Source of the DNA: Candidatus Bathyarchaeia archaeon
Lineage (GTDB): Archaea; Thermoproteota; Bathyarchaeia; Bathyarchaeales; DTEX01
DNA length: 64,000 nucleotides
Direction: 5' to 3'
Assembly (NCBI GenBank): GCA_038867895.1
Contig: JAWBXL010000001.1
Span: 19,334-83,333, forward strand
Shown: positions 5,224 through 25,361 of the stretch, in pieces
Numbering within the stretch: position 1 is the first letter of the stretch
Layout of the letters: every line of letters starts with the position of its first letter
Position numbers and translations under genes: made by a program
Notes under the pieces: model-generated
The model's database searches: none
Told to the model about the DNA's origin: nothing
The model's input: the letters and a program-made list of their open reading frames with translations, nothing else

Positions 5224-7617
5224 TCAACTTTTCCCAAAAAACTCGAGTAATGTTTGCGCATTTCCCGTCTTAGGAGGCAATAAATCGTTTTCTTTAATGC
5301 CAAATAATGAGAGTATTCTCAATGCCGCTGGAATTATTTGATTTGCCACGTAGTATTCTATGTCAACTTCGTCATATGATGCTAAAATATACGGTTTGGC
5401 TCGCTCATGAAGCTTACCTGAACCAGCTGCTATAATATAACCAATTTTATCGCCGACAGTTAATGCCCAACCTTCCCTCTGGAGAATCTTTGCAGCCTCA
5501 ACATGCGGGGCCTTCACCTCATACTCCTCAGGAGACTTTGTTAACGTTTTCCATATTATTAGGTCACGGTATGGAACCCTTCTATTTCTTAAACTTGTTA
5601 TATATTTTCGTACATAATCTACAGCTTTACTGACAGCCAGTTCCTTTAAGATTTTTTCTAAAATTTTTTCTTGAATATCCTTTGCGACGTTTGCCCAATC
5701 TCCTCTAACAACCTCTAACCCAACTATATCAAGTCTTCCATCCTGCATTAAGCCGCAATAACGCTTCTTTGCTTCCGTGAAGAGTACGCGCACATATATT
5801 TTATCTGGTTTTATCTCTAAGCCAAATCTCTCCTCAATGATTTTTGATAGTTTTTCTATTTTTTCTATGTCATTCTTCACGAAGATGCTGTCTGTGTCAC
5901 CATAAATTACTTCTAAACCGAGGTTTTTGGCAATCCTAATAGTATCCATGATGATATGTCTACCCCATGCGGTAACCGCCTCAGCAACAGGCTTAATATA
6001 CCATCTCGCGCCTATCCATCCGGCATAACCATACGTTGCATTTGCAATTACCTTAATTGCTTTTTGGCGAGCGTCAAGAAGTCTATACTTAACTGTTCCA
6101 TGATCAACTTTCTTAAGCTCCGCTCTTACATAATCTCTTGCCTTAATAAGTTTTGTAAGAACTTCACGATAAAACCCTGGGGGCTCCTTCCTAAATTTAT
6201 GATTTACCTCAGGCGCTATGAAGACGCCAGATTCAGGTTCAGGTTCCTCTGCAGAGATGTAGGTGTCTGGCGAAGCGTTGTAGGTTATCATTATATTTGG
6301 ATACATAGATTTAAAATCTAAAACTGCTATGTTTTCATGGATCCCGGGCTTAGGCTCTAGGACGAGGGCGCCAGCATAGGAAGTATATGGCCTCTCAACT
6401 TTTTTCGGCACTAATTCGCCCATTTGGTAAGCATGGCGTATCAGGAACCATTCAACTCTAAAGCCGACCGCTGCCGTGCCAACTTGATCTAATGGTAAAC
6501 CGACCAGGCTTGAGAGCTGAATGGCGAAATCCAGAATTGCCTTGGTTATACCCATTATACATTTCGTATTATCCATGGAAAACCTTAGTAGCTCCAGTCT
6601 TTTCTCCGGGTCATCCCAGTATTGGGCATATTCAACGTCTTCTATTAATATCCTCTCTCCTATTTTCATTATCCCTAAGTAATCCGCTATATGTTCTAGA
6701 GTTTTAATTTTAACTTCAGGAAATTCATCTGCATAATCAAAGAGATCTATGTTAGCCCTGCCAGTTATAGAAATATGCCCATAAGTACTTGTATGCGGCT
6801 CTGTATTCGCTCTATCGATCTTCAGGGATATCCCATTTATCCGCGCCCTCGTCATCAAATATGGTATGTCCTTTCTATTTGTTTCAAAGCCGACAATTAT
6901 ATCTGGGTCAAATTTTCTTAGATACTCTATAAAATCATTAATAATTTTTCCATCATCTCCAGTCCTCTCCGCGATAAACTGCCTTTCTTCGCCAGCGCTC
7001 GTCATGGCTGAAATTATTATGATTGAATCCCTTTCAGGCTTTGGTGAACCTTTTTGGCTATAACTTATAATCGAGAAACTTAAAATTTTCAATTTTGGGT
7101 TTTCAATAATCTCTGGTAAATATTTTGGTCTCGATTTTGCAATCAGTACTCTATCAACCTGCATATCTAATTTATTATTTTCCTCTTCCACCTCCACCTC
7201 GTGCCAGCCGCATGGGACAATATTATTGTCAATCATATAGCGCATGGAATATCTTATATCATCCTCAAGAAAGCTACCGACGCCCTTTATCCTCGAGATC
7301 ACCTTGATGCATTCTTGCATCATATCCGGATTCTGACAGTAAACTTTGACAGCCTTTACTAGCTTTCCAAAAAACTTCCGGTCTACAACTTCTGAGCTAA
7401 CCATATACGGTAAGCTGGTGCCTACCCGCTTTACTCTCTCAGCGAGTTTCTCAGCATCTTCTCCAGCTTCTGGGAGAACATAAAAATATGTTGTGAATCC
7501 TCTATCAATGACTAAAATTCTCTCTCCATCATCATTTATACCCCAAAGCCAGACTTCAGGATTATTATCCCTTACTTCATAATTTATATCTAACAACCAG
7601 AAGCGGCATAAAGGCAA
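5224..7617 (-). CDS. polB: DNA polymerase, family B
   Basis: 797-aa ORF with polymerase motifs A (DFKSMYPNIM), B (KVIANATYGY) and C (YGDTDS), plus an N-terminal exonuclease region. Confidence 0.95.
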   Translation of the reverse strand: MPLCRFWLLDINYEVRDNNPEVWLWGINDDGERILVIDRGFTTYFYVLPEAGEDAEKLAERVKRVGTSLPYMVSSEVVDRKFFGKLVKAVKVYCQNPDMMQECIKVISRIKGVGSFLEDDIRYSMRYMIDNNIVPCGWHEVEVEEENNKLDMQVDRVLIAKSRPKYLPEIIENPKLKILSFSIISYSQKGSPKPERDSIIIISAMTSAGEERQFIAERTGDDGKIINDFIEYLRKFDPDIIVGFETNRKDIPYLMTRARINGISLKIDRANTEPHTSTYGHISITGRANIDLFDYADEFPEVKIKTLEHIADYLGIMKIGERILIEDVEYAQYWDDPEKRLELLRFSMDNTKCIMGITKAILDFAIQLSSLVGLPLDQVGTAAVGFRVEWFLIRHAYQMGELVPKKVERPYTSYAGALVLEPKPGIHENIAVLDFKSMYPNIMITYNASPDTYISAEEPEPESGVFIAPEVNHKFRKEPPGFYREVLTKLIKARDYVRAELKKVDHGTVKYRLLDARQKAIKVIANATYGYAGWIGARWYIKPVAEAVTAWGRHIIMDTIRIAKNLGLEVIYGDTDSIFVKNDIEKIEKLSKIIEERFGLEIKPDKIYVRVLFTEAKKRYCGLMQDGRLDIVGLEVVRGDWANVAKDIQEKILEKILKELAVSKAVDYVRKYITSLRNRRVPYRDLIIWKTLTKSPEEYEVKAPHVEAAKILQREGWALTVGDKIGYIIAAGSGKLHERAKPYILASYDEVDIEYYVANQIIPAALRILSLFGIKENDLLPPKTGNAQTLLEFFGKS

Positions 7618-24939: not shown

Positions 24940-25060
24940 GATTGCCAGCTTCCCTGGCTTCGCGGGGCCGAAGACCCCACTAAAACCAGGGACGGAACGC
25001 GGTTTAACTTCCAAGTTCGGAATGGGTTTGGGTGTTTCCCGCGCCCTTTGGCCGGCAATC
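24940..25060 (-). rRNA. 5S: 5S ribosomal RNA
   Basis: The minus strand reads GAUUGCCGGCCAAAGGGCGCGGGAAACACCCAAACCCAUUCCGAACUUGGAAGUUAAACCGCG...GCUGGCAAUC. It has a 10-bp terminal helix I and the universal loop C/helix III motif CCGAAC..GAAGUUAARC. Length 121 nt. Confidence 0.9.
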
Positions 25061-25128: not shown

Positions 25129-25173
25129 TGGATTTTTCCCAATTTTTTATGTTGGTGGGGCTGTGGTCTAGCA

Positions 25174-25201
25174 TCAGTCCACTATGAATGGACTGCTAGA
25201 A
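25174..25201 (+). other. tRNA intron 1 (D-loop, 28 nt)
   Basis: BHB with central helix CTAG 25168-71 / CTAG 25196-99, bulges CAT and AAA, and a 7-bp inner hairpin 25175-81 / 25189-95. Confidence 0.75.
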
Positions 25202-25213
25202 AGGTATGACGAC

Positions 25214-25249
25214 TGCGTTAATGCGGCTCTAGTCCGCTTAAGCCGTTAA
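25214..25249 (+). other. tRNA intron 2 (anticodon stem, position 28/29, 36 nt)
   Basis: BHB with central helix GACG 25208-11 / CGTT 25244-47 (one G.U), bulges ACT and AAG, and a long inner hairpin 25215-26 / 25234-43. Its removal creates the anticodon-stem strand AC|GGG. Confidence 0.75.
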
Positions 25250-25258
25250 GGGCTCCAG

Positions 25259-25318
25259 ATGCCAGAAGACGGGTTTGCTGACCCGCCTGGGAATGAAGAT
25301 TATCTGGAGCTTGGAGAA
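25259..25318 (+). ncRNA. tRNA intron 3 (canonical 37/38, 60 nt) with box C/D guide-like architecture
   Basis: BHB with central helix CTCC 25253-56 / GGAG 25313-16 and bulges AGA and AAA. Internally there is a D' box CUGA (25278-81), a C' box AUGAAGA (25293-99) and two antisense elements complementary to the tRNA anticodon arm. Confidence 0.6.
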
Positions 25319-25361
25319 ACCCGTAGGTCGCCGGTTCAAGTCCGGCCAGCCCCACCAACAC

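Follow-up and report, generated by a model that had tools for sequence, protein, structure and literature searches.

The DNA analysed here is a stretch of 64,000 nucleotides from a member of the Bathyarchaeia (the window), and it contains a tRNA-Trp(CCA) gene with an encoded CCA that is interrupted by three introns (Table 1). Excision of all three in silico gives a 77-nt tRNA-Trp(cca) that is accepted by ARAGORN, and when intron 3 alone is retained the same program reports a 60-nt intron after position 37; C25255 is thus C34 of the tRNA, and C25320 is C39. In its unspliced form the gene is detected neither by ARAGORN, which returns zero hits for the whole 64-kb window, nor by the Rfam tRNA model, and the output for the window at the gathering threshold is 5S rRNA only. 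The positions of introns 1 and 2 recur in two relatives, L001 and L031.

A MoeA-coding gene flanks the tRNA-Trp gene, and its product is identical to a protein of a Candidatus Bathyarchaeia MAG. The syntenic locus L001, whose MoeA is 75% identical, has the same three introns. Synteny at MoeA is lost by 73% identity (loci L002-L004), and at L248 and L249, where MoeA is 64-68% identical, the upstream neighbour gene is different and a tRNA-Trp gene was not found. The synteny route yielded one full homologue, L001, and the contigs of the closest relatives end inside the T-arm.

Table 1. Positions of the tRNA-Trp gene, its introns and the elements recognised or proposed in and around intron 3 of the window
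Feature	Coordinates	Strand	Remarks
tRNA-Trp(CCA) gene, encoded CCA	25157-25357	+	ARAGORN on spliced product
tRNA-Trp exons	25157-25173, 25202-25213, 25250-25258, 25319-25357	+	
Intron 1, D-loop, after nt 17	25174-25201	+	boundaries inferred
Intron 2, 5' strand of anticodon stem, between nt 28 and 29	25214-25249	+	boundaries inferred
Intron 3, canonical 37/38 site, 60 nt, proposed guide RNA	25259-25318	+	ARAGORN i(37,60) and covariance model
Guide 1 (proposed), ACGGGUUU, plus unpaired N+1 G25277	25269-25277	+	pairs with 25317-25324
D' box CUGA	25278-25281	+	
K-turn canonical stem, hairpin-capped (CCC 25282-84, GGG 25289-91, loop GCCU)	25282-25291	+	
A25292 and C' box AUGAAGA (25293-99)	25292-25299	+	
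12-nt spacer 3' of C', holding guide 2 (proposed), AUCUGGAGC, at 25302-25310	25300-25311	+	pairs with 25252-25260
GGAG, 3' strand of the central helix of the bulge-helix-bulge	25313-25316	+	pairs with CUCC 25253-25256
Target of guide 2: G31 to G37 and intron nt 1-2; C34 is C25255	25252-25260	+	
Target of guide 1: last two intron nt and A38 to U43; C39 is C25320	25317-25324	+	

An earlier note on this DNA, made from the sequence alone, had proposed that intron 3 is a cis-acting box C/D guide RNA aimed at C34 and C39 of its own exons. It had correctly located every element that it listed (the boxes, the hairpin, the antisense elements, TGGA and CAGATGC), and both complementarities are indeed perfect: ACGGGTTT (25269-76) is the exact reverse complement of AAACCCGT (25317-24), and ATCTGGAGC (25302-10) is that of GCTCCAGAT (25252-60). 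The duplex of guide 1 is 8 bp long and runs from N+2 to N+9, and G25273, the fifth nucleotide upstream of CTGA (N+5), has C25320 (C39) as its partner. In guide 2 the partner of C25255 (C34) is G25307, which is both nucleotide 8 after the C' box and the fifth nucleotide upstream of TGGA.

For its bulge-helix-bulge splicing motif a canonical intron needs a complement of about 4 nt to the anticodon loop, and TGGAG is present twice in intron 3 (25305-09 and 25312-16), so that the resemblance to a guide might be due to chance or be a by-product of the splicing motif. The pairing of GGAG 25313-16 with CUCC 25253-56, between 3-nt bulges at 25257-59 and 25317-19, fills the splicing role, and the upstream copy in AUCUGGAGC is therefore surplus to splicing. 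The intron was shuffled 100,000 times with its dinucleotides preserved, and G-U pairs were counted. An xxGA box with 8 bp or more in the register of C39 turned up in 368 of the shuffles, and a C'-like box with 9 bp or more and C34 at nucleotide 8 in 17, each figure referring to one feature; neither is likely by chance. Conservation of both features in homologues is much stronger evidence than the shuffles: they are conserved and covary in more than 100 homologous introns (below), and an origin by chance or as a splicing by-product is almost certainly wrong and effectively refuted.

For comparison, 116 distinct canonical tRNA-Trp introns were gathered with exon sequence only, by a genome scan and a metagenome scan. 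The genome scan, with a T-arm/acceptor pattern, gave five further archaeal genes, Bathyarchaeia included (L010, L031, L050, L093 and L117), plus outgroups, and these five tRNA-Trp genes have the same type of intron as the window. In the metagenome scan the pattern prescribed the anticodon arm, base 1 of the intron and its final three bases, and it admitted introns of 46-76 nt; the sample of 116 therefore represents only lineages with a long intron, and its sequences are not independent of one another phylogenetically. NUGANGA, followed after exactly 4 nt by C-N-GGAGC, is present in 114 of the 116, always with C34 opposite nucleotide 8 after the C' box, which reads AUGAAGA (66), AUGACGA (45), AUGAUGA (2) or GUGAAGA (1). 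A guide 1 complement of at least 7 bp, next to an xxGA box and with N+5 opposite C39, is found in 95 of 114 homologues, and in 85 of these 95 the pairing is exactly N+2 to N+9. Their D' boxes are CGGA (56), CUGA (36), CAGA (2) and CCGA (1), with the GA invariant. The splicing strand is also recognisable throughout, since in 114/114 homologues three or all four of the 4 nt that precede the terminal AA can pair with C32-C35.

A covariance model of the intron alone, built from 50 other Bathyarchaeia introns with the window's clade excluded, matches 25259-25319 at 51.2 bits (E about 6e-10), which is its sole match in the window. The alignment of homologous introns that the earlier note had proposed as a check thus speaks for the core of its proposal: in more than 100 introns the guide complementarities and the C'/D' boxes are conserved, with compensatory changes, and the two antisense elements aimed at C39 and C34 persist across the Bathyarchaeia in the order and spacing of the euryarchaeal guide.

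The D' and C' boxes form what we judge, from its 3-nt bulge and covarying stem, to be a genuine K-turn. In the window it consists of CUGA 25278-81, the CCC/GGG stem, the bulge A25292-A25293-U25294 and then G25295-A25296, which are predicted to make sheared pairs with A25281 and G25280. The 3-nt bulge is the only register that is supported: with it a stem of at least 2 bp can be formed in 104 of 105 introns, whereas a bulge of 2 nt allows this in 60, one of 4 nt in 14 and one of 5 nt in 4, and in 104 of 105 homologues the stem directly adjoins the GA of D'. At the second stem pair C-G (88) alternates with U-A (15), and at the third C-G, A-U, G-C and U-A all occur. When partners were permuted among sequences the observed stem length was reached in 0 of 2000 trials; in the MAFFT alignment 79.5% of the stem cells are paired, with 39 cells changed on both sides, and the covariation score of the stem was reached by none of 500 shuffles and collapsed in every slid register. 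The D' and C' boxes named in the note are thus supported as a pair. Position 5 of C' and position 2 of D' are also associated (A-G 50, C-U 25, A-U 15, C-G 13). These two positions make up the pair adjoining the sheared G-A pairs.

Both guides reach across the exon-intron junctions. Guide 2 pairs with intron nucleotide i1 in 105/105 parsed introns and with i2 in 101/105, the latter with covariation: the i2 pair is U-A in the window, U-G in L001 and A-U in most other introns. In 18 parsed introns there is a mismatch opposite A36, and an extra pair to i3 is gained in all 18; the first spacer nucleotide after C' is almost never paired. Guide 1 covaries with its own anticodon stem across the Bathyarchaeia, the Hadarchaeales (L090) and the Haloferacaceae (L072). 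Since both duplexes contain junction bases of the intron, with covariation, the substrate would be the unspliced pre-tRNA, and splicing would take 2 bp from each guide duplex. When the precursor is folded in cis, the guide 2 duplex (-32.2 kcal/mol) and the splicing-competent fold (-29.1 kcal/mol) are mutually exclusive, and the incompatibility of guide duplexes and splicing helix within one molecule that the note had foreseen is borne out. Formation of both guide duplexes at once in cis would make a pseudoknot. The RNAalifold consensus of the family is the guide 2 helix plus the K-turn stem.

In an alternative reading C39 alone is methylated, through the D' guide, and the second element is no methylation guide but an accessory or unwinding strand, which would open the anticodon arm, compete with the splicing helix and hold splicing back until the tRNA has been modified. 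The element 2 duplex is the lowest-energy cis fold and the helix of the family consensus, no D box adjoins this element, and in eukaryotic snoRNAs extra base pairing can aid C/D methylation. The strict 4-nt spacing, with C34 always at nucleotide 8, is however the exact geometry of a 12-nt guide, and the same geometry is found in Haloferacaceae and Hadarchaeales introns. Element 2 is, moreover, better conserved than guide 1 (114/116 versus 95 with at least 7 bp), and about 10% of the homologues have lost guide 1 and retain the K-turn and element 2. Cm34 is also known in archaeal tRNA-Trp, that of the crenarchaeon S. acidocaldarius included (PMC7668247). We consider methylation of C39 alone unlikely.

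In a different explanation, no methylation is guided at all: the K-turn and the complements would serve folding of the pre-tRNA, the order of splicing or quality control, with L7Ae as a chaperone, or the excised circle would act on other RNAs. Deletion of the Haloferax intron is not deleterious, and the selective reason for its retention is debated (PMC4090602); the tRNA-Trp intron excised in Sulfolobus solfataricus, 65 nt long, is a stable and abundant circular RNA (Danan et al. 2012, PMC3326292). If this explanation held, the N+5 and nucleotide-8 registers would fall on positions known to be methylated by coincidence. Homologues carry the module to the same extent whether their gene has one, two, three or four introns, and each of the two complements covers splice-junction nucleotides that belong to this pre-tRNA alone. 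We regard this explanation as very unlikely.

The terminal half of a box C/D RNA is where the proposal of the note fared less well. Its candidate C box, CAGAUGC (25256-62), straddles the exon-intron boundary and is half exonic, and in the 116 homologues the stretch of 10-17 nt on the 5' side of guide 1 varies, without a conserved motif that contains GA or resembles a C box. Its candidate D box, UGGA (25312-15), overlaps the splicing strand GGAG (25313-16). Nucleotides 13-16 after C', where a D box is expected, read GUCA, GUCU or GUUA in most introns; GA is present at nucleotides 15-16 in only 30 of 114 homologues, 23 of which have tails of at most 9 nt, and in these 23 short-tail cases, to which the window belongs, the splicing strand GGAG or GAAG overlaps nucleotides 15-16. 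Across the family the tail ranges from 6 to 19 nt.

Searches for other closing structures gave little. With guides and boxes held unpaired, RNAalifold returned the anticodon stem and the K-turn stem only, with no terminal stem or second K-turn, and in an exhaustive search for helices between the 5' region and the tail the splicing helix was the only recurrent one. In the window this helix, UGGAG 25312-16 with CUCCA 25253-57, reaches 5 bp if U25312 pairs with A36. A K-turn in which G37-A(i1) would provide the GA of box C was rejected, as it has no adjoining stem and, in introns with long tails, no partner GA. Two further features lie in this region: a conserved K-G-U-N-A sequence 3' of guide 2, and a conserved GGUC after guide 2 that might pair with GACC (the GA of D' plus stem), which is invariant.

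It could still be argued that the intron is a complete box C/D RNA acting strictly in cis, with a degenerate terminal K-turn made of CAGAUGC and UGGA, in which UGGA would set N+5 for C34. The GAUG of CAGAUGC and the GA of UGGA could form tandem sheared pairs in the window, UGGA begins exactly 12 nt after C', and L001 carries the same two sequences. Against this, UGGA is part of the splicing strand and GA is confined at that site to the minority of mostly short-tailed homologues just described; in the related intron L189 the corresponding GUGA is off register by one nucleotide; on the 5' side of guide 1, G37-A(i1) is usually the only GA; no canonical stem adjoins such a K-turn; and the pseudoknot of two simultaneous cis duplexes also weighs against a strictly cis guide. 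A complete box C/D RNA of this kind is thus unlikely. What stands of the earlier proposal is the internal D'/C' motif with its two guides, and what is not supported is the terminal C/D motif. At the level of sequence no terminal C/D K-turn is recognisable in these introns, and the internal kink is the only one that is. Within the 64-kb window, a regular-expression search gave no canonical four-box C/D sRNA, and a crude motif scan of the same window, which is a small part of the genome, gave no fibrillarin, Nop5 or L7Ae.

Taken together, conservation and covariation support well the central reading, in which the intron is a guide for C34 and C39 in the precursor that contains it, and we think it probable that intron 3 represents, in the Bathyarchaeia, the methylation guide known from tRNA-Trp introns of archaea. 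On this reading a short hairpin would close the K-turn formed by the D' box CUGA and the C' box AUGAAGA and, by analogy with the known systems, L7Ae would bind this K-turn and bring in Nop5 and fibrillarin. Upstream of D', an 8-nt segment would bind the 3' side of the anticodon stem together with the final two bases of the intron, placing C39 at N+5, and the 12-nt segment after C' would pair with G31-G37 and the first two intron bases, placing C34 opposite nucleotide 8, which is the N+5 site in the standard 12-nt archaeal spacer. These duplexes hold intron bases and would form at the expense of the anticodon stem and of the splicing helix, so that the substrate should be unspliced and methylation should precede splicing, an order that fits targets including intron nucleotides. 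Methylation might take place on the same molecule or on another one. The RNA would be closed by the anticodon stem and the splicing helix in place of a terminal C/D K-turn.

The selection of C34 without a D box is the weakest and least certain step; C34 opposite nucleotide 8 is N+5 only if a D box or an equivalent lies at nucleotide 13. We tentatively suggest, as a real possibility, that the intron of Bathyarchaeia, and apparently of Hadarchaeales, is a natural single-K-turn guide in which pre-tRNA helices replace the terminal C/D motif and C34 is set by its distance from C' and not by a D box.

The tRNA-Trp intron guide is a textbook example of an intron by which the host RNA is itself modified, and in the literature surveyed here it is described for the Euryarchaeota, with one suggestive note for Sulfolobus; our literature search found no published description of such a guide in Bathyarchaeia. 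That order and spacing are unchanged in more than 100 sequences from Bathyarchaeia argues that the module is ancient and common to the two major branches of the Archaea, and its conservation helps explain why the intron is retained. A family whose internal K-turn covaries and whose two guides are precisely spaced, and which yet has no terminal C/D motif, also offers a natural experiment on the placing of Nop5 and fibrillarin with one K-turn absent. There is a practical side as well, since genes of this type escape ARAGORN and the Rfam tRNA model, and no Rfam family captures the intron module.

The closest known systems are the euryarchaeal guides. The tRNA-Trp introns of Haloferax and Pyrococcus guide Cm34 and Um39/Cm39 (PMC4090602, PMC6313347, PMC11408192), and for such homologues the literature favours action in cis in one case and in trans in another (PMC4090602, PMC11408192). 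A 2024 review places the phenomenon in Haloferax volcanii and other Euryarchaeota (PMC11408192). The guides of Haloferax volcanii, Pyrococcus abyssi and furiosus, and Methanocaldococcus lie in the same gene and in the same 37/38 intron as in the window, with the same order of modules (guide for 39, D', C', guide for 34) and with targets that likewise span the exon-intron junctions. The spacing of C', 4 nt and CUGGAG found in the window is also that of the Haloferacaceae intron L072 and the Hadarchaeales intron L090. The host of the window, on the other hand, belongs to the Bathyarchaeia (TACK/Thermoproteota) and has two extra introns in the gene, and its guide intron has 60 nt, compared with the 103-105 nt reported for H. 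volcanii. L072 has both C/D and C'/D' motifs, and its D'/C' K-turn is also capped by a hairpin, whereas the Bathyarchaeia introns have no terminal boxes; in L090, read by eye, the internal CUGA and AUGAUGA are perfect and, as in Bathyarchaeia, terminal boxes are not recognisable. Its sequence features make the intron of the window a variant, with a single K-turn, of the guide known from euryarchaeal tRNA-Trp introns.

Profile searches see little of this relationship. The scan with Rfam C/D models that the earlier note had suggested did not place the intron in a C/D family: the only match in a permissive scan was the Pyrococcus model sR40 (RF01297), at 12.2 bits (E = 5.2) and below its 50-bit gathering threshold, in an alignment that covers only the D' guide and box (CGGGUUUGCUGACC) that the two have in common. 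Nine related loci, the Haloferacaceae intron among them, likewise matched no C/D family in Rfam.

Within the TACK archaea, to which the window also belongs, the comparable case is the S. solfataricus intron mentioned above, which is reported to have no consensus C and D boxes but two 7-bp complements to positions 34 and 39 of its own tRNA (PMC3326292); that paper gives no K-turn or comparative analysis, and we have compared the intron by its published description.

For a guide with only one K-turn the nearest parallel is engineered. BMG1 has a 4-bp stem in place of the terminal C/D motif, and Sulfolobus proteins still methylated the target of its D spacer; such stem-ended guides select the nucleotide 5 upstream of the stem (PMC9670817). 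Wang, Yang and Ye (2022) ask whether guides without a terminal C/D motif occur in archaea (PMC9670817), and the introns described here are a candidate answer to their question, with one C/D motif replaced in nature; if the single-K-turn reading is true, they would be the natural counterpart of the engineered guides. BMG1 and the window share an intact internal C'/D' K-turn, two spacers and the lack of a terminal C/D motif, and in the window the 12-nt spacer runs into UGGAG, which could form the 5-bp stem with CUCCA, and the base 5 nt upstream of that stem pairs with C34. Unlike in BMG1, the 5' strand of the stem in the window is the target itself, so that a BMG1-like arrangement could work only on a second molecule. 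In most homologues the tail from guide 2 to the splicing helix is 2-11 nt longer, and a ruler measured from the stem would therefore miss C34 in most of them and fits the short-tail class only. With canonical archaeal C/D sRNAs the window has in common the K-turn, antisense elements of 8-10 bp, the N+5 rule at D' and the 12-nt spacer. These sRNAs have two K-turns where the window has one, and the module of the window differs from them also in being embedded in, and aimed at, its own precursor.

The tRNA-Trp(CCA) gene of the window carries, besides the canonical intron 3, two further introns (listed below with the neighboring features), whose positions are shared with the syntenic relative L001 and with L031, another tRNA-Trp gene of the same intron type. 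Related genes L010, L031, L050 and L117 also have an intron in the variable region, and the window gene has none there.

Features in and around the window tRNA-Trp gene
Feature	Position	Strand	Remarks
D-loop intron, after nt 17	25174-25201	+	boundaries inferred from cloverleaf and relaxed BHB (bulge-helix-bulge) motifs
Anticodon stem intron, between nt 28 and 29	25214-25249	+	boundaries inferred from cloverleaf and relaxed BHB motifs
5S rRNA gene	24940-25059	-	97 nt upstream of tRNA-Trp, divergently transcribed
Mechanical ORF, 81 aa	25218-25463	-	overlaps tRNA-Trp gene
Mechanical ORF, 87 aa	24795-25058	-	overlaps 5S rRNA gene

Almost certainly, neither of the mechanical ORFs is a gene. In L010, L050 and L117, three further Bathyarchaeia loci, a 5S gene is found no more than about 2 kb from tRNA-Trp, and L001 sequence upstream of its tRNA-Trp matches the window 5S region, so the linkage of the two genes looks conserved. 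The contigs that encode the closest relatives of MoeA, the protein encoded beside the window tRNA-Trp (L245-L247; 76-79% identity), all terminate within the tRNA-Trp T-arm, and the multi-intron tRNA or the adjoining 5S region may be a break point for assembly.

The two putative guides of intron 3 are not kept equally among its homologs. Guide 1, complementary to the 3' anticodon stem, is lost in the introns of L093, L133, L134, L156, L164 and L177 and partly lost in those of L148 and L167, and all of these retain the K-turn and the C34 complement. Guide 2, which faces C34, reads C[A/C/G]GGAGC in 21 of the 116 distinct homologous introns (e.g., L240, L244, L191 and L147), giving a mismatch opposite A36. 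In each of the 18 introns of this class that were parsed for the pairing, intron nt 3 forms an additional pair with the guide, a pattern that looks like maintenance of duplex length.

On the 3' side of guide 2, at nt 12-16 after the C' box, K-G-U-N-A is conserved (L125-L244 and related loci), and GGUCA by itself is the form found in 42 of the 114 introns with a C'-like box, 4 nt and a C34 complement. It occupies the place expected of a D box, GA is mostly absent from it, and its GGUC is complementary to the GACC of the D' box and stem.

A much shorter arrangement is seen in the Aenigmatarchaeota locus L110, whose tRNA-Trp (around 5748-5845) has a 25-nt intron that we read by eye as UAAUGGAGCU-CUGA-ACA-AUGAAGA-G. 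By the same reading it has a single guide, with C34 opposite the N+5 nucleotide and paired to it, and a K-loop-like D'/C' pair comes directly after this guide; the intron could represent the guide module in a minimal form of half the size.
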